Source: an uncultured Chloroflexia bacterium
GTDB lineage: Bacteria > Chloroflexota > Dehalococcoidia > UBA2247 > RBG-13-53-26
Direction: 5' to 3'
Assembly: GCA_963720375.1 (NCBI GenBank)
Contig: CAVRFM010000023.1
Location: 18,179-82,178, forward strand
DNA: 64,000 nt
Both the position numbers and the translations under genes were made by a program. Within the stretch, counting starts at the first letter, position 1. Each line of letters starts with the position of its first letter. Under the pieces are notes generated by a model. The model was not told the DNA's origin, ran no database searches, and worked only from the letters and a program-made list of their open reading frames with translations. Of the stretch, positions 4,209 to 36,168 are shown piece by piece.

Positions 4209-4347
4209 AGTATACCACGGTCCGTGAGTGGAATTCTCTCGTTATTGCGAGCGAGGGGAAGCAATCTCTGTGTCTTGGTAAACGCTATCCTTGAGGCTGC
4301 TTGATACTGCCGGGTGTAGCGTGAGAGAATAGATAGAGGTTCTGCTG

Positions 4348-4950
4348 ATGAAAGTCATAGGTCTCACCGGAAGCATCTGCAGCGGCAAGAGTACTGTTGC
4401 CGGTTTTCTGGCGAAGCTTGGTGCGGTGGTATTGAGTGCTGACGAGATTGGCCACGAAGCCTTCAGCCCCCATACCGAGACCTGGCAGCGGGTGGTCGAA
4501 GCCTTTGGCAGGGAGATTGTCACCGGCGGTGATGAGATTGACCGGAAGAGGCTGGGGGAGATTGTCTTCAATAACAGCCAGTCTCTGGAGCGGCTGAATC
4601 AGATAATGCATCCCGGCATGCACCGGGTAGCAGAGAAAAAGCTTGAGGAACTGAGACAGCAGGGGGTGGGAGTGGTTGTGCTGGAAGCACCGCTCCTGAT
4701 AGAAGCTAAATGGCTGGACTTGGTGGACGAGGTCTGGGTGGCTATGGCCAGTGAGTCCACCATGGTTCGCCGCTGCCAAAACCGCTCCGGGCTTCCTGAA
4801 TCTCAGGCTAAGGCGCGTATCCTGTCGCAACTTCCTCCGGGGGAGAAGACCAGGTATGCGGACGTAGTGATAGATACTGATGTCACCTTAGAAGAGGTAG
4901 AAGCCAGAGTGAAAGATCTGTGGGAGCAGAGGTTTTGCTCAAAAGGGTAG
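4348..4950 (+). CDS. coaE: dephospho-CoA kinase
   Basis: MKVIGLTGSICSGKST P-loop and overall CoaE architecture, 200 aa. Overlaps the downstream CoA-pyrophosphatase-type Nudix gene. Confidence 0.8.
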   Translation: MKVIGLTGSICSGKSTVAGFLAKLGAVVLSADEIGHEAFSPHTETWQRVVEAFGREIVTGGDEIDRKRLGEIVFNNSQSLERLNQIMHPGMHRVAEKKLEELRQQGVGVVVLEAPLLIEAKWLDLVDEVWVAMASESTMVRRCQNRSGLPESQAKARILSQLPPGEKTRYADVVIDTDVTLEEVEARVKDLWEQRFCSKG

Positions 4951-5537
4951 AAATAGACAAGGAAAAGATCAGGCAAGCGCTCTCCCAACGGGAGAAGATA
5001 GTTGAAAAGCCGGATGGTTTTACTCCAGCGGCTGTGCTCCTGCCGCTCTACGAGGCGGAGGGAAGCTACCACCTTGTTTTCACCAAGAGGACGGAGAAGG
5101 TTCATTATCATAAGGGGCAGATTTCGTTCCCCGGTGGAGGGCGGCACCCGGAGGATAGATCCCTCATGGATACGGCTCTCAGGGAAACCTGGGAGGAGAT
5201 AGGCCTCAACCCCGGGGATGCGGAGATCCTCGGTGAGCTGGATGACTTTGCCACCTATACCACTAATTTTGTCATATCCCCCTTCGTAGCGGCTATACCG
5301 TATCCTTATGAATTCCGAACAAGTCCGGACGAAGTAGAGGAGATAATCAAGGTGCCCCTCTCCGTGCTCCTGGACAAGAACAATTTCACTGAAGAGGAAT
5401 TGCTCCTGGGGAACAGGCCCATTATGCAGTATTTCTATCGCTATGGCGATCAAGTGATCTACGGGGCTACAGCCAGGATTGTGAAGCAATTCCTGGAGGT
5501 TGTGTTCACAAATGACAGGGCTGGCACTAGCACCTGA
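4920..5537 (+). CDS. Nudix hydrolase, CoA pyrophosphatase (NudL-like)
   Basis: GQISFPGGGRHPEDRSLMDTALRETWEEIGL Nudix box. Genomic coupling with coaE. Confidence 0.7.
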   Translation: MGAEVLLKRVEIDKEKIRQALSQREKIVEKPDGFTPAAVLLPLYEAEGSYHLVFTKRTEKVHYHKGQISFPGGGRHPEDRSLMDTALRETWEEIGLNPGDAEILGELDDFATYTTNFVISPFVAAIPYPYEFRTSPDEVEEIIKVPLSVLLDKNNFTEEELLLGNRPIMQYFYRYGDQVIYGATARIVKQFLEVVFTNDRAGTST

Positions 5538-5680
5538 ACATCCCACGTTCCATCACTTGAAGCCAACCTCTTCTGGCCTCAATCCTTTGTGGTAGAACTT
5601 CAGGCTGCTCCCCTTTGTATCCAGGCTGAAGTAGCATGATATAATCTCGCAGAGGATCTTCTCTAATTCACTAAACCCAA

Positions 5681-6196
5681 TTGCACAATGAAATGAAATA
5701 CAGAGTTGAACATTTCTTCTGTAGCCCATGCCTGCTAAAGAATGTGGATGAAATTAGCGAGGTCTACTCGTGTATAGATCGCATAATGTGGCATTCTGAG
5801 TTCGTGCTCGAGTTTAAGGGTAGGAGATATGAGCACCAGCAAGCATACAACAAAGCACTTGAGATAGAGTTCTCTAGCTATGGATGGAAGCCACACCCTC
5901 TGCTGGTTGACCAACCCAGGCTACTAGGAGACTTTCAGAAGAACAATGTATTCGTTGAGATTCAGTTTGGCAACAGTGCTACAGTCTACAGGGATTACTA
6001 TAAGTTCCACTACGGTTTGACGCACAACCTTCTGGCCCTAGCCGTGTTGATAGTCCCAACTACCCCAAAGAAATTCTTCCCCACTCGTGCTTCCAGTGTG
6101 AGTAACATGGCGGAATTTAACCTGGCCGACAGGTACTTTAAGCTGCTGCCTATCCCGGTGCCTATTCTTCTGATTGGACTACTACCAGAGAACTAA
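5681..6196 (+). CDS. putative PD-(D/E)XK nuclease, BglII/BamHI-like restriction-endonuclease fold (tentative)
   Basis: VFVEIQFGN resembles the E-x-Q/E-x-E catalytic motif of BglII/BamHI-family enzymes, recalled from memory and unverified. The gene sits in a lower-GC islet. Confidence 0.3.
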   Translation: MHNEMKYRVEHFFCSPCLLKNVDEISEVYSCIDRIMWHSEFVLEFKGRRYEHQQAYNKALEIEFSSYGWKPHPLLVDQPRLLGDFQKNNVFVEIQFGNSATVYRDYYKFHYGLTHNLLALAVLIVPTTPKKFFPTRASSVSNMAEFNLADRYFKLLPIPVPILLIGLLPEN

Positions 6197-6236
6197 AGTC
6201 TGAGGCATGGACTATACTTGCGAAGGGGGTTTCTAG

Positions 6237-6935
6237 TTGATGCAGCCTGGAGACATTTTGTCCTACCTTCAGATGTGCTCGCAGGAAGGAGTGAACCTCC
6301 AAAGGGGAATGAATTATCACCTGCGTGGTGGACTGAGCGTTATCCTCATGAGCTTGCGACCAAGAGCACCGTATGCAGACAGAATTGAGGATAATGGCCG
6401 AGTCTTGATCTATGAGGGCCATGACCTACCAAGGCAAAGAGGTAGTCTTGATCCTAAGATGGTTGACCAGCCAATGACGAATCCAAATCATACACTGACC
6501 CAGAATGGCTTGTTCTATCAAGCGGCGATGAGTTATAAGCAAAAAGGTGGTCAGCCCGAGCGTGTGAGAGTCTATGAGAAGGTGCGCCCTGGGATATGGG
6601 TCTACAATGGGTTGTTCAAGCTAGTTGATGCTTGGCAGGAGAAGGACAACTCTCGCAAGGTTTTCAAGTTCAGATTGCAAATGCTGGGTGATTCCGAAGA
6701 CTCGGTCACAACACAAGAGGACATCGATCACACTCGTCTCATTCCAGCATCAGTGAAGCTGCAGGTGTGGCAAAGGGATAAGGGGCGATGCGTCATCTGT
6801 GGAAGTAGCGACAACCTTCATTTTGACCACATAATCCCCTACTCAAGAGGAGGTTCTTCATTGGTGGCTGCTAACATTCGGCTACTATGTGCCAGGCACA
6901 ATCTGGCCAAGAGAGACAGGATAGAATACGCCTAG
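6237..6935 (+). CDS. HNH endonuclease with N-terminal putative DNA-recognition domain (Type IV-like candidate)
   Basis: C-terminal CVICGSSDNLHFDHIIPYSRGG...NIRLLCARHN is a clear HNH motif. An N-terminal domain of about 150 aa is of unknown type (possibly SRA/PUA-like). Confidence 0.45.
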   Translation: MMQPGDILSYLQMCSQEGVNLQRGMNYHLRGGLSVILMSLRPRAPYADRIEDNGRVLIYEGHDLPRQRGSLDPKMVDQPMTNPNHTLTQNGLFYQAAMSYKQKGGQPERVRVYEKVRPGIWVYNGLFKLVDAWQEKDNSRKVFKFRLQMLGDSEDSVTTQEDIDHTRLIPASVKLQVWQRDKGRCVICGSSDNLHFDHIIPYSRGGSSLVAANIRLLCARHNLAKRDRIEYA

Positions 6936-7030
6936 CATATACCTTATCCTCCCTCATAGTCGTCTAAGAATCCCCTTTGTATCCAAGTTTGGGTTGGGAT
7001 GGTACGCTGAGTAACTGATGTGGACTTAGC

Positions 7031-7768
7031 ATGGTAGCGAATCCGAAGGATGCAGCTACCCTGATCCTGTTGCGCAGTGCCAGGCGATCTGAATCAGGGA
7101 TCGAAGTCCTCATGCTGCAAAGGCATGCCAATAGCGCGTTTATGCCTGGTGCTTATGTCTTCCCTGGGGGCATGGTGGAAGTGGCGGACTATGCACCTGA
7201 GGTGGAGCGAATCTGCCATGGGCTGAGCTTCGAAAAGGCGCGGGGTATTATCAATAGTGCTTCCCCTCCTGAGAGGGCGCTCGGATTCTTCGTGGCCGCC
7301 ATCAGGGAGACGTTTGAGGAGGCGGGAATTCTTCTGGCTTGCAGGGAGTCCTCTGCATTGGCAGCTCTCGATGAGGAGCAGAAGGCGCGGTTTGCTGGGT
7401 ACCGTGATAAAGTACACGGTGATCCCGTTGCTTTTATGCCGATAATTGAGCAGGAGGGGCTGAAGCTGGCGACAGACAGCCTCTGCTACTTTGCCCACTG
7501 GATTACTCCGGAGGCGTCTCCTATTCGGTTTGACGCCCGTTTCTTTGTGGCCTCTGCCCCGCCGGATCAGGAGGCTTGTTCTGATGGATTGGAGACGACT
7601 GTGGCTAAGTGGATTTCACCTCAGGAGCTACTGGAAGAACACCGAAAAGGGGCGTTGTTTCTGCCTGTGCCCACGCTGTCCAGCGTGTCAACCCTGGCCC
7701 GGTTCTCCAGAGTTGACGAAGTGATTGCCTCGACGCGTGGTAAAGTGATACATGTTGGTCATGGATGA
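7031..7768 (+). CDS. Nudix-family hydrolase
   Basis: MPGAYVFPGGMVE...IRETFEEAGIL Nudix box. The 3' half lies inside the 395-bp direct repeat. Confidence 0.55.
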   Translation: MVANPKDAATLILLRSARRSESGIEVLMLQRHANSAFMPGAYVFPGGMVEVADYAPEVERICHGLSFEKARGIINSASPPERALGFFVAAIRETFEEAGILLACRESSALAALDEEQKARFAGYRDKVHGDPVAFMPIIEQEGLKLATDSLCYFAHWITPEASPIRFDARFFVASAPPDQEACSDGLETTVAKWISPQELLEEHRKGALFLPVPTLSSVSTLARFSRVDEVIASTRGKVIHVGHG

Positions 7769-7833
7769 CCCGGATTAGCCTTTGCTTGATTCTCCTTCAC
7801 CCGGCGCAGCCAATTCTCTACCCATGACACCAG
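7439..7833. repeat. 395-bp direct repeat, copy A (3' half of Nudix gene + 3' end of meaB)
   Basis: About 97% identical to 10914..11309. Contains about 50 nt matching the meaB C-terminal coding sequence although meaB itself lies 3.4 kb away. Confidence 0.85.
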
Positions 7834-7916
7834 CCTTCAATCCTGCTAACATAGTCCGGCAATTATCTCTATAGCAACATAATTGATTGCATCCGTGTCC
7901 CGTGTCGTCCAATTCA

Positions 7917-8064
7917 CAACTTCAAAGATGAAGGGCAATTGTGGTATAGTATTGCCATTGCTGGTACACGGGCGACATGGATAATATGCGGGTATCTGTG
8001 CAACGCCGAAATCATCTATTTTATTTCTCTTTTGATGCGTACGCTTGGAATGGCAGACATCCCA
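7917..8064 (+). other. conserved noncoding element copy E1 (about 148 nt)
   Basis: About 75% identical to 10208..10350. Ends in the core TTGATGCGTACGCTTGGAATGGCAGACATCCC immediately upstream of the probable PHP gene start (TTG at 8087). No conserved reading frame between copies. Confidence 0.6.
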
Positions 8065-8755
8065 ATCATCTTGTCGAGATTTCATCTTGAAGATCGATCT
8101 CCACGTTCATACCAATCCGCTATCACCCGATAGCTTCATGAGCGCTGAGCAAGCCATCCAGACAGCGAAGGAGATTGGATTAGATGGTATTTGCTTCACT
8201 GAGCATGATCGCGCATGGCCATTGTCTGAAATCCGCCTCTTAAGAGAAAAGCACGACTTCCCCGTTTTCAGGGGTGTCGAGGTCATGCTGCGGGGCGGTA
8301 TTGAAATGCTCGTTTTCGGTTTGAACATCGACTTCACCAGTCTGCTCCAACTCAGAGATCTAAGGAATATGGTAATCGCGGCGAAGGGATTCATGGTCTA
8401 CGCACACCCCTTTCGTGGGCTCCCGGAACTGACAATCAGTGATTCAGATGCTGCATTTCAGATCACGCTTGGCAAGGTAGACATCACCAGCATTGATGCT
8501 ATGGAAGGTCGCAATGGGCGCCACAAAGACATTTTCAACCAACCAGCCCTGGAAATGGCTGCGAGGTGTAGCTTGAAGACCACAGGCGGAAGTGATGCCC
8601 ATGCAGTAGATGAAATCGGCACATGCGTCACGGTCTTTGAGAGCAACGTCACTTCGGATGCCGAACTACTGAACGAGTTGAGTGCCGGCAGATTTGCCAG
8701 CGCACAATTCAGGATCAGGGAGAGATGGACATGGCGGGAACCACAGATAGGATAG
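8045..8755 (+). CDS. PHP-domain metal-dependent phosphoesterase
   Basis: KIDLHVHT...GLDGICFTEHD PHP signature. The likely true start is TTG at 8087 (MKIDLHVHT). Confidence 0.65.
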   Translation: MEWQTSQSSCRDFILKIDLHVHTNPLSPDSFMSAEQAIQTAKEIGLDGICFTEHDRAWPLSEIRLLREKHDFPVFRGVEVMLRGGIEMLVFGLNIDFTSLLQLRDLRNMVIAAKGFMVYAHPFRGLPELTISDSDAAFQITLGKVDITSIDAMEGRNGRHKDIFNQPALEMAARCSLKTTGGSDAHAVDEIGTCVTVFESNVTSDAELLNELSAGRFASAQFRIRERWTWREPQIG

Positions 8756-8976
8756 GTACCCGCGCTGGGGGTCTTAATTGACAACCTGCGTCCCGATGGC
8801 GTAGCATTTTCTTTGAGCCTTGTTCATGAAATGGGACACCGCAGTTTCTCGGAAAGCAAGAAGGTAACCCTATTGAGCGGTGCCGTCGACAACGGGGAGC
8901 CCTGCCTTGATCCCCCAGCCTGAAGTATTGCGGATGTCCTACACAAATAAACGCAAATAGGAGGTGCGGAGCAAAA

Positions 8977-9900
8977 ATGGCAAAGAGACTGGATGGCAAA
9001 GTAGCGATAGTAACCGGTTCCGGCCGCGGAATCGGTGCCGCCCACGCAATGGCGCTGGCCATGCACGGAGCGAAGGTAGTCGTCAATGATCCCGGTGTCA
9101 ATCGCGACGGGACTGGTTCCTCCAACGTGGCTGACGAGACCGTAGCCGCTATCAAGAAGGCCGGCGGAGTAGCCATAGCCAACTATGACAGCGTGGCCAC
9201 TCCTGAAGGCGGCGAGGCCATCGTCAAGTGCGCGGTGGAGAAGCTCGGCGGAATCCACATACTGGTAAACAACGCAGGCTTCCTGCGGGACAAGACATGC
9301 TGGACCATGACTCCGGAAGAGTTTGACTTGGTGGTCAAAGTGCATCTCTACGGGCATTTCAATACCATCAGGGCAGCGGCACCGATCATGAGGCAGCAGA
9401 GGTGGGGAAGGATAATCAACACCTCCTCTGAGGCAGGTGCTATCGGTAATTTCGGGCAGATCAACTACTCGGCAGCCAAGGAGGGCATCGTCGGTCTGAC
9501 CAGGGTTGTCGGCAGGGAACTGGGCAAGTACGGCGTGACCTGCAATGCGATCAGGCCGCAGGCGGCAACGCGTATGACCATGACCGAGGATGTGCTGTCC
9601 AATATCGCGAAGATGACCGGGCTGAAAGACGCGAAAGAGGCCGAGAAAGCATTCATTGCCATGGCCGACCCCAAGTTTATTTCTCCTATCCTGATATTCC
9701 TGTGCTCAGAGGAAGCGGCAAACGTCAATGCGCGCGTATTCAATGTTGGCAGCGGCAAGTTCGGCCTCTACAACGAGCCGGAGGTCATTGCCTTTGTGGA
9801 GAAGCCTGGCCAGGTCTGGGACACTGAAGAGCTGATCAAGGAAATGGTCGCCAAAGTAACTGGCAAACTGGCTAACGTGTCCCCTCCGCAGCAGAAATAG
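8977..9900 (+). CDS. SDR-family NAD(P)-dependent oxidoreductase (3-hydroxyacyl-CoA dehydrogenase-like)
   Basis: TGSGRGIG cofactor motif, NNAG, and the YSAAK catalytic YxxxK. 307 aa with a C-terminal extension. Confidence 0.7.
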   Translation: MAKRLDGKVAIVTGSGRGIGAAHAMALAMHGAKVVVNDPGVNRDGTGSSNVADETVAAIKKAGGVAIANYDSVATPEGGEAIVKCAVEKLGGIHILVNNAGFLRDKTCWTMTPEEFDLVVKVHLYGHFNTIRAAAPIMRQQRWGRIINTSSEAGAIGNFGQINYSAAKEGIVGLTRVVGRELGKYGVTCNAIRPQAATRMTMTEDVLSNIAKMTGLKDAKEAEKAFIAMADPKFISPILIFLCSEEAANVNARVFNVGSGKFGLYNEPEVIAFVEKPGQVWDTEELIKEMVAKVTGKLANVSPPQQK

Positions 9901-10207
9901 ATCGAAGTGGCAATTCGAGCAACCGAAGCCGCTGTAGGTATGACAAACCTGCAGCGGCTTTCATTCCTATGAACTGGCTATCGGCAACGGCTGAGGCATG
10001 ATCACCGAATACGATCTGAGACAAGCCGCAGCATCTACCTGGTCTTGATCCTGATCAGTATGTCTCCCGGGTGGCCGTCAGTAGCCTAGCAGGCGCCGCG
10101 GTGCTTTCGGCTGTGTGCCGACAAAGGACCGAGAATCTGACGACCGGAGAGACCTAGAACGGACAGTCACAGGACTGTGTTGGCCTTGTGTCATGTCCCT
10201 TTGTTCC

Positions 10208-10350
10208 GCAACTTCAAACCTCAAGGCCAACTGTAGTATAGTGCTGCCATTCTTGGTTCACGGACGACGCGAAGAGACTGCCGGTGTCTGTGCGACGCCG
10301 AAATGATTCAGGTAGATCTTGATGCATAAGCATGAAAGGGCAGACATCCC
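10208..10350 (+). other. conserved noncoding element copy E2
   Basis: Aligns with E1. The core is TTGATGCATAAGCATGAAAGGGCAGACATCCC. No plus-strand gene follows directly. Confidence 0.55.
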
Positions 10351-10473
10351 AACCTCAGCTTGGACGTAGAAGTGGATAGGCGGTTTTGATTCCCTCAAGG
10401 CCGTCAAGTGATCCCAAATGGCCTCTTGAATATCGAGGGTATCACAATCTACCGCTGAATTAAGGAGCAGCGT

Positions 10474-10827
10474 CTAGCTAACATTCTCCGGCCCCCAGTA
10501 TGCCCTCATGTGTTGCACCTTGCCATCGGCATTAAGCTCGAACACATCAATCGGGCTGATGGTCATGGCTTTCATCACACCATCAAAACTGAAGGCCACC
10601 GAATTGCCAGCGCAGCGCAGCTTGCCATTCAATTTCAGCTTCATCCCCATGGCAAACCCAGATTTGTACAATCCAAGGATCTCCTCGATGCCGTGGCGCA
10701 CGGGGGAGCCGACCGGGTCTTCCACAGTGGCATCTACAGCAAAGAGTCTGCGGATCATGTTGAGATCAGCTTTCTCAAAGGCTTCAACGTACATTTGAAC
10801 GGTTTTTTGAAGCGTAGCGGTTTCCAT
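10474..10827 (-). CDS. SnoaL-like / NTF2-fold (ketosteroid-isomerase-like) protein
   Basis: 117 aa. YVEAFEKADLNMIRRLFAVDATVEDP pattern is typical of SnoaL-like polyketide-cyclase/NTF2 folds. Confidence 0.5.
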   Translation of the reverse strand: METATLQKTVQMYVEAFEKADLNMIRRLFAVDATVEDPVGSPVRHGIEEILGLYKSGFAMGMKLKLNGKLRCAGNSVAFSFDGVMKAMTISPIDVFELNADGKVQHMRAYWGPENVS

Positions 10828-10883
10828 GCGGCCTCCTCCTTTTGGATAATCACGCAGACATTATACACTTACAGTTTAAGGTT

Positions 10884-10915
10884 TTGATGCGTACGCATGG
10901 AATGGGAGACATCCC
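10884..10915 (+). other. conserved element core copy E3 (32 nt), perfect palindrome ATGCGTACGCAT
   Basis: TTGATGCGTACGCATGGAATGGGAGACATCCC abuts the start of repeat copy B. Confidence 0.5.
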
Positions 10916-11309
10916 GATAATTGTGCAGGAGGGGCTGAAACTGGCGACAGACAGCCTCTGCTACTTTGCCCACTGGATTACTCTGGAGACGTCTCCTATT
11001 CGGTTTGACGCCCGTTTCTTTGTGGCCTCTGCCCCGCCGGATCAGGAGGCTTGTTCTGATGGATTGGAGACGACTGTGGCTAAGTGGATTTCACCTCAGG
11101 AGCTACTGGAAGAACACCGAAAAGGGGCGTTGTTTCTGCCTGTGCCCACGCTATCCAGCGTGTCAACCCTGGCCCGGTTCTCCAGAGTTGACGAAGTGAT
11201 TGCCTCGACGCGTGGTAAAGTGATACATGTTGGTCACGGGTGACCAGGATTAGCCCTTTGCTTGATTATCCTTCACCCGGCGCAGCCAATTCTCCACCCA
11301 TGACACCAG
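10914..11309. repeat. 395-bp direct repeat, copy B
   Basis: About 97% identical to 7439..7833. Here the meaB 3' end is the genuine one and the Nudix portion is a truncated fragment. Confidence 0.85.
10927..11243 (+). pseudogene. truncated duplicate of the C-terminal ~105 codons of the Nudix gene at 7031..7768
   Basis: The encoded peptide is near-identical to the C-terminus of the 7031 product, but lacks the N-terminal half and a proper start. Confidence 0.7.
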
Positions 11310-12246
11310 AGTCCTGTGGCTGAGGATCTCTTCGGCGGCGGAGTAGGGATCAATCTCGCCTTTCTCCACCTTTTCCAGGTAGCAGTTGAGCTGGCTGTCA
11401 CCCTCAACCAATTGTAGAATCTGGGTGGTGATCCTGATTCTCTATGGTGCGAAGCAGGTCTGCCTTGCGCTGCTGCTGACGCCTCAGGGCGAGTTTGCCA
11501 CTCTGTTTAAGGGCCTGATAGTGGTTTTCAACATGTTGATAGAGTTCTCTGGTGCCTACGTCGTTGGTGGCCTGGGTGGCCACAACGGGGACTTGCCACC
11601 ACGATTGTTTTGGGCTCTGGTGGAGCATTGATATCAACTCGCCTACCAGGTAATCCGCCCCGGGGCGGTCGGCCTTGTTCACAGCGAAGATATCGGCGAT
11701 TTCCATCAGTCCGGCTTTCATGGTCTGAATGGTGTCCCCGGCTTCGGGGACCAGGATGACGACGACGGTATCAACGGTCTCCATGACATCAATCTCTGTC
11801 TGCCCAACGCCAACCGTCTCCACGAAGATGATGTCCTTACCGGAGGCATCCATGAGCTTGATTACACTGGAGGCCGTCCGAGGCAGTCCTCCATGGCTCC
11901 CCCGGGTGGCCATGCTGCGAATGAAGACGCCGTCATCAAGGAAGTGCTGCTGCATCCTGACCCTGTCTCCCAGCACAGCGCCTCCCGAAAACGGGCTGGT
12001 GGGGTCAACAGCTATGATGCCGACCTGCAACGCCTTCTCTCTGGCGATGGCAGTCAGTCTGCTGACCATGGTGCTCTTCCCGCCTCCCGGCGGGCCAGTG
12101 ATGCCAACACAGAAGGCCTTGCCTGTGTGGGGATAGATGGCCCTCATTAGTTCGGGCACCTCGTCGCTTTCCCTCTCCACCGTGGTGATCAGCCGTGCCA
12201 AGGATAGCCTGTCACCAGCGAGCATTCTCTCTATAATTTCAGTCAT
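11250..12246 (-). CDS. meaB: methylmalonyl-CoA mutase-associated GTPase MeaB/ArgK, interrupted by an apparent +1 frameshift near 11433
   Basis: GITGPPGGGKST P-loop, NKAD G4 motif and the family's C-terminal LEKVEKGEIDPYSAAEEIL. The C-terminal about 55 codons are only readable after skipping one nt (CAG-G-ATC). Confidence 0.75.
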
Positions 12247-12403: not shown

Positions 12404-14011
12404 ATGGCTGAGAACAAAAATGGGCAAATATACTCAGTCTCTGGGATCCCCATAAAGGACATCTATACCCCAGAGGACGTGAAGAATATCAACTACGAGA
12501 AAGACATCGGCGCCCCCGGCAAGCCTCCATATACTCGGGGCGTGTACGCCAGTATGTACCGGGGCCAACTGTGGACCATCAGGCGTCTCACCGGCTATGA
12601 CAGCCCGGAGGCCACCAACGCCCGCTACAAGGAGGAGTATGCCCTGGGGCAGACAGGCTTCTCCATTGCTCCCGATATTTCCACTCCTTCGGGCATGGAC
12701 CCGGATGACCCCAGAGTGGCGCATGATATTGGCCACGCCGGCGTTCCCATCTACTCCATCGAAGATATGGAGGCTGTCTTCAAGGATCTGCCCATAGAGA
12801 AGTGTTCTGCTTTCTTGGCAGACAGGGTTGGTGGACTGCTGACACCTGCATACTTCGTCATGGCGCAAAGGCGAGGCATACCCCTCGATCAGGTCAGAGG
12901 GACAACGGCCAACGACATGCTGACCTGGAGCTCGATGGAGCTGGCCAACCAGCCTCCGCCAGAGGCCTACTTCCGGCTCTCCGTGGACCTCGTCGAGTGG
13001 TGCGCTCAGTACGCGCCGCGGTGGTATCCCATATCCATGAACTCCTACAACCCCAGAGACAACGGCATCAGCGCTATCCAGGAGCTGGGCATGCTCATGG
13101 CGGATGTTATCCAGTATTGCGATGAGGGGAAGCGGCGGGGCAGGGTTCCTTTGGACAAGTTCTGCAAGAGGTTTGCGTTCAACATGGCTGCCAACAACGA
13201 TCTCTTTGAGGAAATATGCAAACTACGTGCGGCCCGGCGCATGCTGCGCAAGATCATCAACGAAAGATTCGGGGTACAGGACCCGGCGTGCGGACAGTTC
13301 CGGGTGCACGTCCAGACCTCAGGCTCCACTCATACGCACCAGGAGCCTCTGAACAACGTCATCCGCATTGCCTACCAGACACTGGCTGCTGTCTTGGGCG
13401 GAGCCCAGTCTATACACGCCAACGGCTATGATGAAGCGGTGTGCCTGCCGACGGAACAAGCCATGCTGCTGGCCATTCGGACGGAGCAGATAGTAGGGCT
13501 CGAGTCCGGTGTTACCAATACCATAGACCCGCTCGGAGGCTCTTACTATGTTGAGTCCCTGACCAATGAGATAGAGAAGAGGGCATGGGAATATATCAAG
13601 AAGATCGAAGACCAGGGTGGTCTCTTGAAGGCCATCACCAATGGATGGATTCACCGGGAGTACAAACAGGCCATCATTGACTACGACAACAAACTGAAGT
13701 CCGGCGAACTTACCATTGTGGGCGTCAACAAGTTCCGCCTCGATCCGGACAAGGTGCCCTACAAGGTGCCCATCTTCAAGTCCGATCGGACCTCTGTCGA
13801 GTTTCTCAAGCAAAGGATCAAGAAGCTCAGAGAGACCAGGGACAAAGCCAAGCATGCCCAGGCCATGAAGAAGCTGGACGAGGTCCTCCGCAGCGACGCC
13901 AACTCTGTCCCGGCTATCAAGGAAGCGGTGGAAGCACATGCTACCCCCGGAGAGTTGGGGGCGGCTGTGATGAAAGTCTACGGCAAGTGGGCCTACCCGA
14001 TCGGTGTCTAG
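12404..14011 (+). CDS. methylmalonyl-CoA mutase-family catalytic (substrate-binding) subunit
   Basis: RGVYASMYRGQLWTIRRLTGY...PRVAHDIGHAGVPIYSIEDM matches the MCM/ICM alpha-subunit TIM-barrel signature. 535 aa, with a separate B12 subunit downstream. Confidence 0.8.
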   Translation: MAENKNGQIYSVSGIPIKDIYTPEDVKNINYEKDIGAPGKPPYTRGVYASMYRGQLWTIRRLTGYDSPEATNARYKEEYALGQTGFSIAPDISTPSGMDPDDPRVAHDIGHAGVPIYSIEDMEAVFKDLPIEKCSAFLADRVGGLLTPAYFVMAQRRGIPLDQVRGTTANDMLTWSSMELANQPPPEAYFRLSVDLVEWCAQYAPRWYPISMNSYNPRDNGISAIQELGMLMADVIQYCDEGKRRGRVPLDKFCKRFAFNMAANNDLFEEICKLRAARRMLRKIINERFGVQDPACGQFRVHVQTSGSTHTHQEPLNNVIRIAYQTLAAVLGGAQSIHANGYDEAVCLPTEQAMLLAIRTEQIVGLESGVTNTIDPLGGSYYVESLTNEIEKRAWEYIKKIEDQGGLLKAITNGWIHREYKQAIIDYDNKLKSGELTIVGVNKFRLDPDKVPYKVPIFKSDRTSVEFLKQRIKKLRETRDKAKHAQAMKKLDEVLRSDANSVPAIKEAVEAHATPGELGAAVMKVYGKWAYPIGV

Positions 14012-16127: not shown

Positions 16128-17054
16128 GTGAGAATGGCTAAACATCTGGAAGGTAAGAATGCTGTGGTCACCGGCGGAGGCCGGGGCATAGGAAGAGCAG
16201 TGGCATTGGAATTGGCCAGGAATGGCGCCAAGGTAGTCGTATCTGATCTCGGCGGCAGCGCGGCTGGAGAAGGCTCTGATGCGACGCCGGCGCAGCAGGT
16301 GGCAGATGAGATCAAGAAGGCTGGTGGGCAAGCGGTTGCCAATCATGATAACGTCACCGATTTCGCTGCGGCAGAGCGGATCATCAAGACATGCGTGGAC
16401 AACTTCGGCAGGATAGACATTCTGGTCAACTGCGCCGGTATTCTGCGTGATCGCATGATCTTCAACATGACGGAACAGGAGTGGGATGCCGTTATCGCTG
16501 TTCATCTGAAGGGCATGTTCAACATGTGCCGCCATGCATCCAGACTGATGAGGGAGCAGAAGTGGGGACGAATTGTTAGTACTACCTCTGATGCCTGGCG
16601 GGGTGCGCCGGGACAGCCTAACTACAGCGCCGCCAAGGGCGGCATTGTAAGTCTCACCTACACCATGGCGGGAGAGTTGGGCAAGTATAATGTGACTGTG
16701 AATGCCATTGCTCCAATAGCAGCTACCAGACTGACGATGAGTGATGAGGTGAAGGCGAGATTCACCAGGGCTCTTGAAGCGGGCATGATGAACAAGGAAC
16801 AGTATGAGGAGGCAATAAACATGCCCGGGCCGGAGTTTGTGGCTCCAATAGTGGCCTACCTTTGCACGGAAGAGGCAAAAATCATCAATGGTAAGGTTAT
16901 CGGGGTCAGCGGTGGTCGCGTGGCTATCTATACCAAACCATTCGAGATTGCGGGCCTCCATAGGCAGCCTAGGAAAGATGGTGCCTGGACAGTGGACGAG
17001 CTGATCAAGTTAGTCCCCGGGACTTTGATGGCTACACCATTGGTCATGATGTAG
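16128..17054 (+). CDS. SDR-family oxidoreductase (paralogue of 8977..9900)
   Basis: TGGGRGIGRA, NCAG, YSAAK motifs. Domain layout matches the 8977 product. Confidence 0.7.
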   Translation: MRMAKHLEGKNAVVTGGGRGIGRAVALELARNGAKVVVSDLGGSAAGEGSDATPAQQVADEIKKAGGQAVANHDNVTDFAAAERIIKTCVDNFGRIDILVNCAGILRDRMIFNMTEQEWDAVIAVHLKGMFNMCRHASRLMREQKWGRIVSTTSDAWRGAPGQPNYSAAKGGIVSLTYTMAGELGKYNVTVNAIAPIAATRLTMSDEVKARFTRALEAGMMNKEQYEEAINMPGPEFVAPIVAYLCTEEAKIINGKVIGVSGGRVAIYTKPFEIAGLHRQPRKDGAWTVDELIKLVPGTLMATPLVMM

Positions 17055-17241: not shown

Positions 17242-18606
17242 GTGAGTGTTGCGGAAAGTGCCGAGATAAAGATACCAGCCGGAAGGGAGTATCAGTTGCC
17301 GACCGACCCTGATCATCTGTGGGATGGGTTGAAGGATATCGGGTTGGGGATAAGATGGGTAGCTGAGGTAAAAAAGGCCGACATGCAAATTGAGCTGTCG
17401 GGGCCAAAGTGGGAATACAAGAGTTACACCATCCTTGAGATCGTAGAAGAACCGGGGAAGGTCAGGAACGGCATAGTTAACCTTGTTGGCCCGGATATAC
17501 ATGAAGTCCCGCCTGGGAGTTCCTTCCCTATGGCATGGGACATCAAGGTCTATGGCCATGGGATAACCCAGAGACACCGGGAATACATTGAAAGACAAAT
17601 GGCCATGTCATTACATGGTATAGAGGGCTATATGGCCTTTGGCTCATTCCAGGCCCCCTGGATGCGCTTCAGCAAGGCTATCGTTGGACGACTCACCTTT
17701 GCGAAGCTGTGCCAGGTCATACATGCCTACGTCAAGACCGTTGTCCCGCAGGTGGAGGCGATGGAGTTCCGCTGGATCATTGCATCGGAGGAAGTTGGTG
17801 GCCTCAAGCTGATTGAGCCACTTTACAGGTTGGGTATCCAGAGGCTGAAGGCGCAGGAGCTGTCGGTCTCTCTTGAAGATGCTGATGTGGATATCTTCTA
17901 TGGCTGCACTATCTGCAAGTCGCTGGCCCCCAACCACGTGTGCGTCATTACACCGAGCCAGATACCGTACTGTGGCATCCTCTCCTATAATGGAGCGCAG
18001 GTGACGGTGGAGCTTGATCCGGAGGGCTATATCTTCCGGATGAGCAAAGGCGAGTGCAAAAATGAACAAATGGGCAGCTACACCGGTGTGGATGAGGCAG
18101 TCTACGAGAGGTCTAACCATCAGATAAAGCATGTGAATGTCTTCAGTGCCATAAAGTATCCTACTACCAACTGCGGTTGCTTCGAAGGGGCGGCATTCTA
18201 CATTCCTGAAGTAGATGGCCTTGGCCTGGCTATAAGACGGTACATTGGGGTAACTCCGTTGGGCGTAAAGTTCTCGCGTCTGGCCGGCATGATTTCGGGC
18301 GGCTCTCAGAATCATGGAAATAAGGGCGTATCCATGCGGTCCATGCAAAGCAAGACCTTTCTCAAGGGCGATGGAGGTTGGAGCAGGATAGTGTGGATGC
18401 CCGCCGATTTGAAGAAGGAAGTCGCGGAATACATTCCCGAAGAGATCTACGATAAGATTGCCACTGAGCAGGATACCGTTGATCCTATCGAGCTGAAAGA
18501 GTTTCTAAAGAAGAAGAAGCATCCGATAGTAGAGAAGTATTGGAAGAATGGCGAACCACAGCCACTGAAAGTACCACTCCCCGGAGCGAAGTGGCCCGAC
18601 GAATAG
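17242..18606 (+). CDS. cdhC: acetyl-CoA synthase catalytic subunit, archaeal short type (CdhC/AcsB-like), copy 1
   Basis: 454 aa. Contains the A-cluster Cys-Gly-Cys motif (NCGCFE) plus upstream Cys residues (CTICKS...CGIL). Confidence 0.75.
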   Translation: MSVAESAEIKIPAGREYQLPTDPDHLWDGLKDIGLGIRWVAEVKKADMQIELSGPKWEYKSYTILEIVEEPGKVRNGIVNLVGPDIHEVPPGSSFPMAWDIKVYGHGITQRHREYIERQMAMSLHGIEGYMAFGSFQAPWMRFSKAIVGRLTFAKLCQVIHAYVKTVVPQVEAMEFRWIIASEEVGGLKLIEPLYRLGIQRLKAQELSVSLEDADVDIFYGCTICKSLAPNHVCVITPSQIPYCGILSYNGAQVTVELDPEGYIFRMSKGECKNEQMGSYTGVDEAVYERSNHQIKHVNVFSAIKYPTTNCGCFEGAAFYIPEVDGLGLAIRRYIGVTPLGVKFSRLAGMISGGSQNHGNKGVSMRSMQSKTFLKGDGGWSRIVWMPADLKKEVAEYIPEEIYDKIATEQDTVDPIELKEFLKKKKHPIVEKYWKNGEPQPLKVPLPGAKWPDE

Positions 18607-19120: not shown

Positions 19121-21622
19121 GTGAAAGATAAGAGAATTGCTCATGTCGGATCTCTGGAGGTCGATATCAGCACAGTCGTGCGTGACCCGCGCGGTCATGA
19201 AGACGAAATTGTCGAGATAATGGAGAACGACTTTGTTGAGGGCCGCCATAGTAATTTTGGAGGATGGATAACTCTACTGCCCGATGCGGCAGACATAGCA
19301 GAACTGGATTATGCTCTGTTGAGCAGGTATCCGCCGTTATACACTCAGCCCAATGGTGTTTGCACTGACTGTGGCCTGGGCCCCTGCAACTTGAAAGAGG
19401 GTCAGGGAAAGTGCGGACTGGATATGGAGGCTTTCCAGGGCAGGTTAAGCTTACGGAAAGCATGCCGGGGTTGTATGACTCAACTAGTGGCCAGCCGACA
19501 ATTGCTGAACTACGCTCTCAAACGCTGGCCGGAGGATACGCCTGTCAGCATGGGTGAGATTCTCGGTATCTCAGATCATGCTCCTGCCATAAGCGTGTTA
19601 TCCGGGATACACGTAAAGACTTTAAGAGATCTTAACAGAGCGCTTTCTTATGGAGAGGAACAACTGGCCAAGCTCTTTCAGGCGAGTTATTCGGGCACTG
19701 GAACGGCGGTGAATTTTGAAAGCATGGTGCTGCATGCCGGGTCTGTTTTGCTCCTCACCATGGGTGTGGCTGAGCTGCTGAAGATCTCCTGCTATGGCTT
19801 TATCAGTGCTGCCAATCAGCCACTGGAGGCGATCGAGCAGTTTCCTCCTGCCACTTTAAATGGTGGGTGGGCATCCATGGAGAGTGGGAAGCCTGTCATA
19901 GCCTTTGTTGGGGATGACTTCCTGCCGGCATGGTGTGCCATCGATCATATGAAGCAGAACGGTCTGACAGAAAAGATTGAGATATGCGGCATGGGTTCAG
20001 CCGGTGATGACATAGTGAGATTCTACGATAGGTGCCGGATCGTGGCCCCGATGGTGAGGGCGCCAAAGGCGATCAGAAATGGCCTGTTTGATGTGGTTGT
20101 GGTCAGTCCAGGATGTATTCCCCTGGACCTTCTATCCCAGGCGGAGCGTGTCGATAGCAAGGTTATATGGGTTGGTCACAATGGAATCAGCAATCTAGCG
20201 GATAGCACGGATGAGCCATCAGACAAGATAGTAGAGGCCTTACTTCATGGAGGAAAGGCAGTCTGGATCAGGGACGTAGAGAAGGCTGGTGAGGTGGCGG
20301 TGAAGTTGGCACAGAAGGTCAAGAGAAGTGGTAATTACATTATCTCTGACGATGAAGCAATAAAACAGGCAAAGGGCCATAAGCAGGATTGTGATATTTG
20401 TTCCAGTGTCTGTCCCAATAATCTGCCTGTATCCAGGGCGGTCAGAGAATTGGGTAAGGGTGACTGGAAGGGTTTCTTCGAGGTGGAGAAAGGATGCAAT
20501 TTCTGCGGCAAATGTGATGAGGCCTGCCCCAGCAAGGTTCAACTGCGCGATATCATTGTGGCTGCCGAGAGAAAGCAGGCCGGCACCGATAAATTCATAA
20601 TGAGGCCAGGCAGGGGGCCGATATCAATAACTGAGCTGCTGCAATCTGCTTTCGCAGTAGGCTGGGGCAGCATACCAGCCATGGTGACCATCTTTGGTTG
20701 CGGCGATGCCAAGAAGGAGGAGATCGCCTGGATAGCCAGTGAGTTGCTTAACGGCGGTTGCATGGTCTTTGTGGCAGGGTGTGCCGGAGCTGAAGTAGCT
20801 CGATCTTTCAGCCAGGCGAAGAAGAAGTACCTCTTTCAAGAATATGCTGGCACTTGTGCCTCGAGAAATATTGTGAATTGCGGCAGTTGCTCTGCTATTT
20901 GCCATGCTGTCCCGATGTATCTCATGCTGCGGCCTTCTGGTGGCATTCCTCTGTATGGCAATCTACCACCGCTGGGAGATTCCATCAGTCTTGGTGGTGC
21001 TCAGTCTGTGATCATGTGGGGGGCATTGCCGGACAGAATGTATGCGGTGGCAGCTGCCTGGGCTCGGCTTGGATCAACGGTCATTGTAGGGCCTGCCTCA
21101 TCCTCAGGATGGAACCGCTACCTGGTTGGTGATAGATATGATCGCAGCAAGTGGTGGGTCTATCATGGTGAGACGGGTAAGAGGCGTGAGGTTGAACCGG
21201 TAAAGGAACACTGCATTGTGCCCGTGGAAACTAAAGAGGAAGCGTTGACTATGCTGGCAAGGTCTGTGTTGAATGTAAAGGACTACAGAGAGAGCCGAGC
21301 TACTCACCTGGAGGTGATGATTGACTACTTTGAGCGCTTCTATCAGCAGTTGCCGGAGGATTGGCCTCTCTTTGTGAGGTCAGATTTCGAACTGCCGCCG
21401 AGATACAGACGACGCATGGTCAATCTCCTGGGATCCGAGTATGGATGGGAGACTGAAGGTGTGAAGGTTAAGAGAGCAAAGAATAGAGATGGCAAGCTAA
21501 TGACCATGTCTGAGTTCGCAGCTAACTATGGGATGGAGCAAGGGATATATAGCACAAGGCTTCGCACCCAGTTACCCCTACGTCTCAGGGGTGTGGCTGA
21601 TGAAGGTAAGTCTAAAAAGTAA
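19121..21622 (+). CDS. cdhA: CO dehydrogenase catalytic subunit, archaeal CdhA-like, copy 1
   Basis: 833 aa. N-terminal CTDCGLGPC...GKCG Cys cluster. Two internal ferredoxin motifs (CDICSSVCPNN; CNFCGKCDEACPS) are typical of archaeal CdhA. Adjacent to cdhB and cdhC. Confidence 0.65.
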   Translation: MKDKRIAHVGSLEVDISTVVRDPRGHEDEIVEIMENDFVEGRHSNFGGWITLLPDAADIAELDYALLSRYPPLYTQPNGVCTDCGLGPCNLKEGQGKCGLDMEAFQGRLSLRKACRGCMTQLVASRQLLNYALKRWPEDTPVSMGEILGISDHAPAISVLSGIHVKTLRDLNRALSYGEEQLAKLFQASYSGTGTAVNFESMVLHAGSVLLLTMGVAELLKISCYGFISAANQPLEAIEQFPPATLNGGWASMESGKPVIAFVGDDFLPAWCAIDHMKQNGLTEKIEICGMGSAGDDIVRFYDRCRIVAPMVRAPKAIRNGLFDVVVVSPGCIPLDLLSQAERVDSKVIWVGHNGISNLADSTDEPSDKIVEALLHGGKAVWIRDVEKAGEVAVKLAQKVKRSGNYIISDDEAIKQAKGHKQDCDICSSVCPNNLPVSRAVRELGKGDWKGFFEVEKGCNFCGKCDEACPSKVQLRDIIVAAERKQAGTDKFIMRPGRGPISITELLQSAFAVGWGSIPAMVTIFGCGDAKKEEIAWIASELLNGGCMVFVAGCAGAEVARSFSQAKKKYLFQEYAGTCASRNIVNCGSCSAICHAVPMYLMLRPSGGIPLYGNLPPLGDSISLGGAQSVIMWGALPDRMYAVAAAWARLGSTVIVGPASSSGWNRYLVGDRYDRSKWWVYHGETGKRREVEPVKEHCIVPVETKEEALTMLARSVLNVKDYRESRATHLEVMIDYFERFYQQLPEDWPLFVRSDFELPPRYRRRMVNLLGSEYGWETEGVKVKRAKNRDGKLMTMSEFAANYGMEQGIYSTRLRTQLPLRLRGVADEGKSKK

Positions 21623-21700: not shown

Positions 21701-23101
21701 GTGTTGTGTAGGTTCCACGAAAGGGGTATACAAATGGCTATTCCAGAGGAAGAAGCAGTATCCAAACTCCCACCGGGAAGGATATTTCAGTTGCCGACAG
21801 ACCTTGATCACCTTTGGGACGGGCTGGATGACGTCGGGCTCGGTCTAAGGTGGTTGAGTGAGGTGAAGAAAGCTGACATGCACATTGAGTTGGGTGGGCC
21901 TAAGTGGGACTATAAGATGTTCTCCATCTTCTACATTGAGGAAGATCCGGAAAAGGTCAGGGATGGAGAAGTCAAGTTGATCGGCCCGGACGTTCCAGAA
22001 GTGGCAGCAGGCACCTCATTACCCGGCGGGTTTACGATAAGGATCTATGGTAAACAATTGACTCAAGCACATCAGGGCTATGTATCCAGACAGATAGGAA
22101 CTGCGCTGCAAGGCATAGAAGGATTCATGCTCTTTGGAACGCCGGATGCTCTGTGGATAAGGATAAGCAAAGACGTGGCGAACAGGTTGACCTTTGCCAA
22201 GATATCTCAGTTTTGCTATGCCACCGCGAGAACGCTGATCCCTCAGGTAGATGCCATAGCATTCTTCTGGGCAGTAGGAGCTCCTGAAGTCGGTGGTGTT
22301 GAGATGATAAACCCGCTGGTTACCTGGGCTAAGGAGAAGTTTAAGATCATAAGTGCCAAGGAGCTCTACGATGATGAAGACGTAGATACCTTCTATGGTT
22401 GCACGATCTGCAAATCCCTGGCGCCAAATCATGCCTGTGTCCTTACGCCAAGCGCGCTGCCTTACTGCGGCATCATCGGCTATGATTCGGCTAAGGTAAC
22501 AGCAGAAATAGACCCGGAAGGGTATGTTTTTACTATTCCTAAAGGTGAATGCTTGGATCAGGAGAAAGGGCATTACACGGGAGTCGACCAGGCCATATGG
22601 GAGAAATGCAATCATCTGGTAAAGCGCGTGAACATCTACAGCAGCATAAACTATCCGACTACCAATTGTGGGTGCTTTGAGGCAGCATCTTTCTACATAC
22701 CGGATGTTGATGGTATCGGTCTGGCTATGCGGCGCTATACCAAGATGACACCGCTCGGTGTCAAGTTTTCCACTTTGGCAGGTATGATCTCCGGTGGGGC
22801 TCAGAATCATGGGTTCAAGGGATTGTCGATTGCCGGTATGGCGAGTAAGAACTTCCTGCGAGGAGATGGCGGTTGGAACCGGGTAGTCTGGATGCCTGCG
22901 GATTTGAAGAGGGATATCGCGGATGTGATTCCAGAGGAGGTCTATGACAAGATTGTCACTGAGGAAGAGACTATTGATCCTCTGGAGCTCAAGGAGTTGC
23001 TCCGCAAGAAAGGACACCCAATAGTCAAGCTGTTCTGGAAGAATGGCGAACCCCAGCCATTAAAGTTGCCGCTTCCCGGTGAAGACTGGCCGGATAACTA
23101 A
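21701..23101 (+). CDS. cdhC: acetyl-CoA synthase catalytic subunit (CdhC-like), copy 2
   Basis: 466 aa, about 60% identical to copy 1. NCGCFE A-cluster motif retained. Confidence 0.75.
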   Translation: MLCRFHERGIQMAIPEEEAVSKLPPGRIFQLPTDLDHLWDGLDDVGLGLRWLSEVKKADMHIELGGPKWDYKMFSIFYIEEDPEKVRDGEVKLIGPDVPEVAAGTSLPGGFTIRIYGKQLTQAHQGYVSRQIGTALQGIEGFMLFGTPDALWIRISKDVANRLTFAKISQFCYATARTLIPQVDAIAFFWAVGAPEVGGVEMINPLVTWAKEKFKIISAKELYDDEDVDTFYGCTICKSLAPNHACVLTPSALPYCGIIGYDSAKVTAEIDPEGYVFTIPKGECLDQEKGHYTGVDQAIWEKCNHLVKRVNIYSSINYPTTNCGCFEAASFYIPDVDGIGLAMRRYTKMTPLGVKFSTLAGMISGGAQNHGFKGLSIAGMASKNFLRGDGGWNRVVWMPADLKRDIADVIPEEVYDKIVTEEETIDPLELKELLRKKGHPIVKLFWKNGEPQPLKLPLPGEDWPDN

Positions 23102-30311: not shown

Positions 30312-30329
30312 TTTGTATATCGTCCGACT

Positions 30330-32128: not shown

Positions 32129-32192
32129 CTCTCCTCCTAATTAAGAAGTATACTATACAATCTCGATCCGAACCAATCTCAGGGGTGATTGA

Positions 32193-33131: not shown

Positions 33132-33291
33132 GGACAAAGGCAGTATGACCTGTGGTAAAATGAAGTGGGAGCCTGTTAAGGATCGGTAGCAACAGTTATT
33201 AACCTTTGTTGCTCGCCCCTGCAGCAAAACCAGACGGAAACAGGATCTTATATTTCTTCCCTAAAATAATCTAAGGAGTATTCTCAGAAGC

Positions 33292-35718: not shown

Positions 35719-35724
35719 CGATCG

Positions 35725-36168
35725 ATGAGGGTATTGCTGCAGCGGGTGACCCAGGCCTCTGTTAGTATTGATGGAGAAGAAGTAGCCCGGATCGGCAAGG
35801 GACTGGTGTGCCTGGTGGGTGTAGCTCAGGGAGACACGGAAAGCGATGCACGATTCTTGGCCGAGAAGGCAGCCAACCTCCGTATATTCTCAGACGAGGC
35901 AGGCAAATTCAATCTCTCACTGGTGGATGTCAATGGAGAACTGTTAGCGGTGAGCCAATTCACACTACTGGCTGATGCTCGCAAAGGTCGACGACCCAGC
36001 TTCACTCAGGCAGCATTGCCAGTTGAGGCTGAAGCTCTATTCAACAAGTTTGTGGAACTGGCGAGGGCTACGGGCCTGAGAACGGAGACAGGGCGATTCC
36101 AGAAGCACATGCTGGTGGAAATCTACAATGACGGCCCAGTTACCGTTCTCCTAGATAGCAAGCTGTGA
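35725..36168 (+). CDS. dtd: D-aminoacyl-tRNA deacylase
   Basis: MRVLLQRV...SQFTL pattern and 147-aa size match Dtd. Confidence 0.8.

Follow-up and report, generated by a model that had tools for sequence, protein, structure and literature searches.

A 395-bp direct duplication flanks a stack of repeat-bounded segments between a Nudix gene and meaB in an uncultured Chloroflexota bacterium

Integrons include sedentary chromosomal arrays with highly similar attC sites, as well as integrase-less attC clusters; a tyrosine integrase (IntI), attI and a promoter adjoin an integron array, and attC sites are imperfect palindromes that have an inverse core and a core and that fold as single strands. In Salmonella and E. 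coli, transposon-held duplications arise when recombination between element copies at different sites duplicates the interval between them, and defence islands and other variable hotspots sit between conserved core genes. In the complex class 1 integrons linked to ISCR1, accessory DNA at the precise end of an element is bracketed by direct duplications of several hundred base pairs of resident sequence (PMC3575428). The ssrA islands of Dehalococcoides are tandem and strain-specific, carry 20-bp direct repeats of the tmRNA 3' end, lie in a high-plasticity region and encode the serine recombinase DsiB; some of them have no integration genes of their own (PMC3146451). Here, we describe a locus in a 64-kb stretch of DNA (the window) from an uncultured Chloroflexia bacterium (contig CAVRFM010000023.1), in which two direct copies of a 395-bp sequence, copy A and copy B, duplicate the junction between a Nudix gene (Nudix245) and meaB. 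They bracket about 3.1 kb with PHP, SDR and SnoaL-like genes and copies of a non-coding element of about 184 nt, termed E. Judged by what the window contains, the locus belongs to none of ISCR1 regions, integron arrays and ssrA islands.

The duplication is old and inherited and is not a recent integration, because L084, a 1.84-Mb contig from an independent sample that is 2.5-2.8% diverged, holds both repeat copies with the same boundaries. The preliminary description of this DNA had held that relatives with both repeats would indicate an old, fixed duplication, and L084 goes part of the way to that. The 3.1 kb between the copies is not one inserted element, as that description had proposed, but a stack of segments (Table 1). 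Across some 15 related contigs, the closer genomes having been reached by a PHP protein search, no strain lacks exactly the 3.1 kb between the repeats, or exactly 7834-11309. The strains differ instead by 5545-8063 and by the slot between the second and third E copies (E2 and E3), that is, by whole segments cut exactly at the heptamer ACATCCC. In six contigs (L086-L091) exactly 5545-8063 is missing: NUDIX200, which is the first Nudix gene, runs through its stop codon and ACATCCC (TGAACATCCC) straight into AATCATCTTG, the PHP leader (window 8064), and the missing stretch starts after the ACATCCC at 5538-5544 and ends with that at 8057-8063. At the slot, 10351-10881 is replaced by other DNA in L096, L105, L107, L111 and L084, and 10351-10915 is also differently filled in L086/L105, L087 and L091. 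At least five distinct continuations follow the ACATCCC of E2 among strains otherwise 94-99% identical, the divergence beginning directly after this terminal heptamer. The order in L096, L105, L107 and L111 is E2, 2.3-5.2 kb of unrelated genes, E3 and copy B, and among the products of these slot genes are a sigma-70 region 4/alpha-CTD protein, a treble-clef zinc-finger/CapR protein and an OLD-family nuclease accompanied by a PIN protein. L084 retains segment 1 with a truncated left part (5507-7093 is replaced by 164 nt, and Nudix245 is 26 codons shorter), and 1.1 kb of other DNA takes the place of 10351-10907. Our preferred reading, to which we assign a probability of about 0.5, is that the 395-bp copies are an old inherited duplication, produced as a by-product of the stacking of repeat-bounded segments between NUDIX200 and meaB.

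Table 1. Features of the nudix-meaB locus (window positions; Pfam and nhmmer denote the source of an assignment)
Feature	Position	Strand	Remarks
NUDIX200 (first Nudix gene)	4920-5537		heptamer ACATCCC adjoins its stop codon
Core-like heptamer ACATCCC	5538-5544	+	left junction of segment 1; directly after NUDIX200 stop
Segment 1	5545-8063	+	BglII-like, SRA-HNH, intact Nudix245, meaB 3' scar, linker, E1 (genes: Pfam)
BglII-like gene	5681-6196		Pfam
SRA-HNH gene	6237-6935		Pfam
Nudix245, intact, 245 aa	7031-7768	+	Pfam
Repeat copy A	7439-7833	+	last 330 nt of Nudix245, 6-nt spacer, 59-nt orphan meaB 3' end
Orphan meaB scar in copy A	7775-7833	minus (coding sense)	59 nt, 1 nt shorter than in copy B
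Linker, meaB scar to E1	7834-7881	+	
E1, full length	7882-8063	+	nhmmer E 5e-59; palindrome ATGCGTACGC; terminus GGCAGACATCCC
Segment 2	8064-10350	+	PHP, SDR, terminator hairpin, dnaJ-like scar, linker, E2
PHP phosphoesterase (PHP/PHP_C)	8087-8755	+	Pfam
SDR of segment 2	8977-9900	+	Pfam
Orphan dnaJ-like 3' end	10038-10094	minus	19 codons, in-frame stop; tblastn E 1e-6
E2	10176-10350	+	nhmmer E 1e-49
Segment 3, variable slot	10351-10915	+	SnoaL-like gene and E3 remnant
SnoaL-like gene (SnoaL_2)	10474-10827	minus	Pfam
E3, 3' remnant	10852-10915	+	ends GGGAGACATCCC; E3 full length in L111
Repeat copy B	10914-11309	+	headless Nudix 3' half, 6-nt spacer, true meaB 3' end (from 11250, minus)
meaB	11250-12246	minus	split: 280-aa open reading frame 11404-12246 and out-of-frame C-terminal part
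Methylmalonyl-CoA mutase (MCM) gene	12404-14011		Pfam

That this architecture is merely a chimeric join of two strain variants, made during metagenome assembly, is highly improbable and largely refuted by the same contigs. The suspicion draws on the metagenome type of the contig, 97,881 nt long at NCBI/ENA and deposited with a truncated MeaB (280 aa), and on a suspicious 1-nt insertion in meaB. It draws further on the fact that short-read assemblies tend to break at E elements and at the repeat: many matches lie at contig ends, and the close strain L117 stops within the repeat, 64 nt past the meaB stop. Against these stand the recurrence of the full architecture in L084, of the E1-PHP arrangement in L085, and of the joint between E3 and copy B (E3/GATAATTG, the slash marking the junction) in four JGI contigs, L096, L105, L107 and L111; in L084 this joint is degenerate. 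The two copies are also non-identical, unlike a collapsed repeat.

The locus shares single traits with each of the systems described above. As in ISCR1-linked integrons with a duplicated 3' conserved segment (3'-CS), one boundary is precise and the other arbitrary, and a single element end would mobilise the adjacent DNA; unlike in those regions, no IS91/ISCR or other transposase was found among 30 window proteins, a 184-nt non-coding E stands at every segment boundary, and the host is Dehalococcoidia-like. Integron arrays likewise have same-orientation repeats at segment 3' ends, whole-segment strain differences at a short core and a weak inverted-repeat consensus on both sides of the junction. 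In contrast to integrons, the 30 proteins of the window include no IntI, which may be encoded elsewhere in the genome, E is not an imperfect palindrome overall and carries a promoter-like motif, and the segments carry multiple genes, on both strands, as well as pieces of neighbouring genes. With the ssrA islands the locus has in common the bacterial class and tandem islands delimited by a short direct repeat, whereas, unlike in islands that target tRNA or tmRNA genes, no RNA gene matches E and no recombinase or integrase was found in the window. As in transposon-held duplications, two insertions 395 bp apart and one exchange would give the order interval-array-interval, and no 395-bp staggered cut is needed; those duplications, however, depend on a defined transposon and are usually large and unstable, whereas this one spans 395 bp and has persisted through at least 2.5% divergence. 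Finally, as in defence hotspots, near-identical strains carry different genes in the slot, frequently of a defence-like kind (OLD-family nuclease with PIN, BglII-like, SRA-HNH), although the PHP, SDR and SnoaL-like content of the window looks metabolic and the boundaries are formed by a specific repeat family.

The repeat itself is far above chance. Over 394 aligned columns, 7439-7833 and 10914-11309 show 383 matches, 10 mismatches and one indel, an identity of 97.5% that bears out the earlier estimate of about 97%. Repeat finding returned the blocks 7436-7735 / 10911-11210 at 98% and 7779-7833 / 11255-11309 at 96%, with a register shift of 1 nt between them; the remaining long repeats of the window are 73-74% paralogous stretches only. 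In a MAFFT alignment the edges are sharp on both sides, homology running from CC/GATAATTG to ...ACACCAG, and the junction proper lies after 7440 in copy A and after 10915 in copy B. The right joint of copy A reads CACCAG/CCTTCAATCC, and beyond 7833 no significant match to meaB was detected. At copy B, the convergent stop codons of Nudix (11241-11243) and meaB (11250-11252) are 6 nt apart. The preliminary description had correctly assigned the intact Nudix end with an orphan meaB piece to copy A, and the headless Nudix with the genuine, convergent meaB end to copy B; the orphan piece is 59 nt rather than about 50 nt long, and the gap is 6 nt rather than 7 nt. Pfam agrees with its PHP, SDR and SnoaL-like genes between the copies.

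A target-site duplication is a fixed-length short direct repeat, typically of 2-14 bp, that results from a staggered cut at the ends of an element. The 395-bp duplication is not of this kind, as had been noted at the outset, and no terminal inverted repeats or transposase were found inside it. We also considered whether the repeat is mosaic with respect to the 5' half of Nudix and rejected this: conserved meaB accounts for the 84.6% match to the relative L081, and the repeat, at about 73% identity to L081, is no different from the rest of Nudix. The headless Nudix fragment in copy B could be translated from an in-frame ATG (GGAATGGGAGACATCCCGATAATT...) supplied by the E3 end (10903-11243, plus strand, about 110 aa), and the equivalent open reading frame of L105 begins MADIPTIEQEG... 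The fragment is probably not needed, because the L084 copy carries a frameshift.

The closest homologues of Nudix245 in a search of 5.8 billion proteins are only 72% identical. In L081 (Chloroflexi RBG_13_53_26), L082 and L083, with about 70% Nudix identity, Nudix245 and meaB converge with only 18 nt between them, as the preliminary description had expected of relatives lacking the insert; among close relatives, an empty site was not found. The E element is absent from these three, which share MCM/B12/SDR/CdhC synteny with the window, and SRA-HNH precedes Nudix245 in L083 too. In L082, the genes beyond meaB are those for MCM, a B12-binding protein and two small proteins, then an SDR and CdhC, matching the window at 12.4-18.6 kb. 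When genome contigs were searched with Nudix245, the relatives recovered were at most 63% identical and lacked nudix-meaB synteny. Since the junction is uninterrupted in L081-L083, the uninterrupted state is ancestral and the present state derived, the ancestral arrangement being NUDIX200, (SRA-HNH) and Nudix245 convergent with meaB. We examined whether the inserted SDR, which lies between the repeats, is a recent paralogue of the resident SDR (16128-17054), and rejected this: the inserted SDR is 48% identical to the resident gene and likewise to its L082 counterpart, whereas the resident SDR and its L082 orthologue share 84%.

An uninterrupted ancestral junction also favours a Campbell-type integration, in which a circle carrying the 395-bp nudix-meaB junction together with 7834-10913 would have entered by one homologous crossover and duplicated the junction. 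The topology of a single crossover fits exactly, with an intact gene and an orphan fragment on each side, and class 1 integrons offer a precedent of this kind, in that the 3'-CS is duplicated around their ISCR1-linked regions (PMC3575428). The required circle, E3-core/GATAATTG...CACCAG/CCTTCAATCC, would however need both illegitimate joints (E3/nudix-mid and meaB-60nt/linker) beforehand, which only moves the problem. Moreover, no strain differs by exactly the repeat and the insert, the observed differences being 5545-8063 and the E2-E3 slot; the insert is composite, its parts differing in origin and turnover; and the event would predate the split between the window and L084 lineages. The preliminary description had suggested such a Campbell-type or a duplication-insertion event. 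That DNA was interposed at the junction holds; a single crossover is possible, neither needed nor specifically supported, and we regard it as unlikely.

Our alignments of the four copies from the window and L084 revealed concerted evolution of copies A and B in both genomes. Copies A and B are 97.5% identical within the window and 96.4% within L084, compared with 94.9% and 94.7% for the orthologous A and B copies, respectively. At eight sites the two window copies agree with each other and differ from the two L084 copies, which also agree, while no site separates both A copies from both B copies. Comparison with the B copies of four further strains identified derived alleles that occur in one genome only and yet in both of its copies, at position 16 (window) and at positions 31, 164, 166 and 209 (L084). 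The identical boundaries speak for a single origin of the duplication, and the shared private alleles hence point to gene conversion after the lineages split. Every change private to the window in the Nudix fragment of copy B alters an amino acid (E to V, P to L, A to T), whereas the private changes in the Nudix part of copy A are synonymous. Copy B of L084 is frameshifted, and the meaB scar of copy A has an indel. This pattern of decay is as expected for redundant halves.

The E-elements that the preliminary description had located between the repeats are indeed there, and form a single family consisting of E1 (7882-8063), E2 (10176-10350) and the 3' remnant E3 (10852-10915). All three window copies end in (G)ACATCCC, and the family is marked by the palindrome ATGCGTACGCAT and by the terminus GGCAGACATCCC, then conserved NATGTTNG. 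A promoter scan detected the promoter-like motif TTCAAA-N18-TATAGT in E, at 7921-7950 in E1. The E terminus occurs on 22 metagenome contigs, in many contexts and often at contig ends, with clusters spaced 0.5-5 kb apart (L092-L113); on contigs with two or more copies, these are always in direct orientation. Thirty distinct 3' flanks of E gave the consensus N-A(29/30)-T-G-T-T-N-G(22/30), the inverse of the CAGACAT before the terminus, and each junction therefore resembles a short inverted-repeat core. In many E copies, the final ~80 nt are framed by inverted heptamers (ATGTCTG...CAGACAT), and single-strand folds are marginal (z -0.8 to -2.3; +0.2 for E1 of the window).

Several identities proposed for E were rejected. 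The E termini (TAGATTGCATCC... and ...GGCAGACATCCC) are not inverted repeats and no duplication flanks the copies, which excludes a miniature inverted-repeat element or insertion sequence, these being marked by terminal inverted repeats and a target-site duplication. A known RNA was discarded (no Rfam match at the gathering threshold or with E up to 10, and no tRNA match), as was a novel structured RNA, RNAalifold having returned six pairs for 18 diverse E 3' parts, none with compensatory changes. Nor is E the leader of a downstream gene, as the flanking genes lie in either orientation, convergent pairs included. A search of viral contigs for E gave no match. A second E subtype (L084 13290-13356; also L096, L098, L103 and L113) has the 5' part GGGTATGATGGTTACC...ACAGAGACGATATCCC/AATGTTCTCG with an internal core-like site. 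In L084, the joint between E3 and copy B lies at the internal ATATCCC, not at the terminal ACATCCC, as if the ~70 nt between the cores had been deleted.

Segments 1 and 2 share a common anatomy of genes, about 60 nt of the 3' end of a convergent neighbour, a linker and E. In segment 2, the minus strand at 10038-10094 carries the terminal 19 codons of a dnaJ-like gene (AC*ATDGHPGDILIRIKTR), a gene that is otherwise absent from the window. The PHP-SDR pair occurs in other neighbourhoods in three distant relatives (L114-L116; PHP 78-89% identical), none of which has an E element, and a dnaJ-like gene converges on SDR in two of the three (L114 and L115). The dnaJ-like fragment is a scar of the surroundings in which the pair formerly lay. 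The native upstream region of PHP-SDR is conserved and ends in ...TATACAATGATACC/AATCATCTTG. Because segment 2 shows this parallel anatomy, copy A is best read as the tail of a captured cassette and not as one side of a target duplication, and copy B as the resident locus, whose nudix gene was cut at a site resembling the core. PHP-SDR-E2 (8070-9900) is 0.2-0.7% diverged in the L086 group, compared with 1.3-5% for the CoaE/NUDIX200 left flank (4300-5500), which suggests that this piece spread recently across diverged strains. In L115 and L116 the pair adjoins a MoxR-AAA / CbiA-ParA / VWA cluster, and in L116 it lies near ClpB and D-Tyr-tRNA deacylase. The window holds a MoxR-AAA / CbiA-ParA / VWA cluster at 28101-36168 that does not include PHP-SDR, a hint that the pair may have moved by about 22 kb within the genome lineage. 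A stretch resembling the linker 7834-7881 is present in L087, ~46 nt past its E2.

To compare the boundaries with the E core, we scored positions with a weight matrix of the core (-7 to +8, from 25 independent sites, the tested sites being excluded). The Nudix245 site ATGCC/GATAATTG ranks fifth of 4002 in the reconstructed uninterrupted locus, and the site after NUDIX200 ranks first of 5354 in the window (2.7 kb) and 12th of 5954 in L081; the site upstream of PHP ranks 45-49 of ~6400-7150. The dnaJ right-boundary site, in contrast, ranks 1720 of 6366. The native left boundaries thus resemble the E core and the right boundaries do not, and therefore one end is directed by the core, either through an enzyme or through microhomology, while the other is arbitrary.

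On our preferred reading, E-bearing DNA would have entered the ancestral locus twice and independently, at points separated by 395 bp; the two entries could have taken place in different lineages or at separate times. One entry, at the core-like site inside Nudix245 (ATGCC/GATAATTG), would have given the joint of E3 with copy B; the other, 60 nt inside the meaB 3' end, would have given that of copy A with the linker and E1. Recombination of an E core with the core-like site after NUDIX200 may have turned NUDIX200-core...E1 into a movable unit, corresponding to the observed indel. Once both states were combined in one chromosome, by insertion of the unit or by exchange within a shared array, the 395-bp interval would flank the array, and gene conversion of the RecA type may then keep the copies ~97% alike while their redundant halves decay. 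A circle of segment 1 would join GGCAGACATCCC to ACGTTCCATC, and one of segment 2 would join the E2 end ...ACATCCC to AATCATCTTG. The data show that the uninterrupted state came first, that the duplication is old, that its copies evolve in concert, and that the segments are units with scars and core-like left boundaries; the order of these events, the circular intermediates and any dedicated recombinase are inferred.

Several observations weigh against this scheme. The 7-nt match at the deletion ends and the core-like left boundaries fit microhomology-mediated illegitimate recombination equally well, and the right boundary at 7833, in meaB, shows no core similarity (264 of 4002). The scheme gives no account of how E1 and the linker arrived at 7833, and the junction of copy A with the linker is independently confirmed by L084 only. 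The window and L084, which have segment 1, are sister to the L086 group, which does not, so that gain and loss are equally parsimonious. Part of the signal attributed to gene conversion could also stem from assembly polishing, had this made the copies more alike. The scheme also invokes site-directed steps while no recombinase or transposase was found among the 30 proteins scanned of the 64-kb window. A recombinase beside the tRNA-Ser at 62345 was considered and dismissed, the neighbour being a radical-SAM/TRAM enzyme and no integrase.

Another possibility would be a duplication in place, in a chromosome where nudix and meaB converge, with foreign DNA copied in between two template switches, 395 bp from each other, during a single round of repair or replication. 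Candidate routes are microhomology-mediated template switching and homology-facilitated illegitimate recombination; in the latter variant, an intact Nudix245 would have been re-installed beside a locus disrupted earlier at ATGCC/GATAATTG. Microhomology exists at the joint of E3 with copy B, as GAT(G/A)..TTG typically follows an E end and the nudix gene in its native form reads GCC/GATAATTG, whereas none is detectable at 7833/7834. The NUDIX200 - SRA-HNH - Nudix245 synteny, as in L083, is explained most simply if the left side never moved, and selection to restore Nudix245 would account for purifying selection on copy A, with its synonymous changes as against the non-synonymous ones of copy B. 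A duplication in place leaves unexplained, however, why segment 2 has the same anatomy of genes, convergent-gene scar, linker and E in the absence of a duplication, and why the indel 5545-8063 runs exactly from core to core. We consider this course improbable as well.

A broader interpretation, which we advance tentatively and deem rather unlikely, is that the E elements are recombination sites of an undescribed integron-like gene-capture system of Dehalococcoidia-related Chloroflexota, served by a recombinase encoded in trans and acting at the core GGCAGAC-ATCCCNAT-GTYTGYC. In such a system, the E core would pair with core-like sequences in ordinary genes, and chromosomal segments would be excised as circles together with scars of their neighbours. 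The circles would then be stacked in one orientation at a hotspot after NUDIX200, and the 395-bp duplication would be a footprint of this process. Taken alone, the repeat documents well a small segmental duplication that outlasted strain divergence and whose copies gene conversion keeps alike as the redundant halves decay, which is useful and unsurprising; the array of E-bounded segments is the more novel lead. It constitutes a compact, sequence-defined hotspot in an uncultivated Chloroflexota, with whole-segment differences at one heptamer and two segments that bear scars of their origin. If a dedicated enzyme exists, this would be a new route for capturing ordinary chromosomal genes into an array, and the core sequence, the E family and the near-complete 1.84-Mb contig provide handles for an enzyme search. 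If there is none, the locus would illustrate clearly how illegitimate and homologous recombination, guided by repeats, shape a variable island in nature.

Some further features of the window were recorded. Of PHP, SDR and SnoaL, only PHP was matched by PADLOC, and weakly (PDC-M49A, E 6.8e-05). The BglII-like endonuclease gene adjoins SRA-HNH (5681-6935) with no methyltransferase between them, and both are missing in L084 and L086-L091. In meaB, a single extra A at ~11437 shifts the reading frame; the base is absent from L084, L105, L111 and L081, MeaB is intact in L084 (331 aa), and the deposited window protein is likewise of 280 aa. The extra base is either a sequencing error or the mark of a real pseudogene. 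In the CdhC/Prismane (CODH/ACS-like) region, direct-repeat pairs of 73-74% identity lie 4.3-4.5 kb apart (18349-18599 / 22844-23094 and 21116-21256 / 25377-25517), and these are probably paralogous genes of a tandem duplication.

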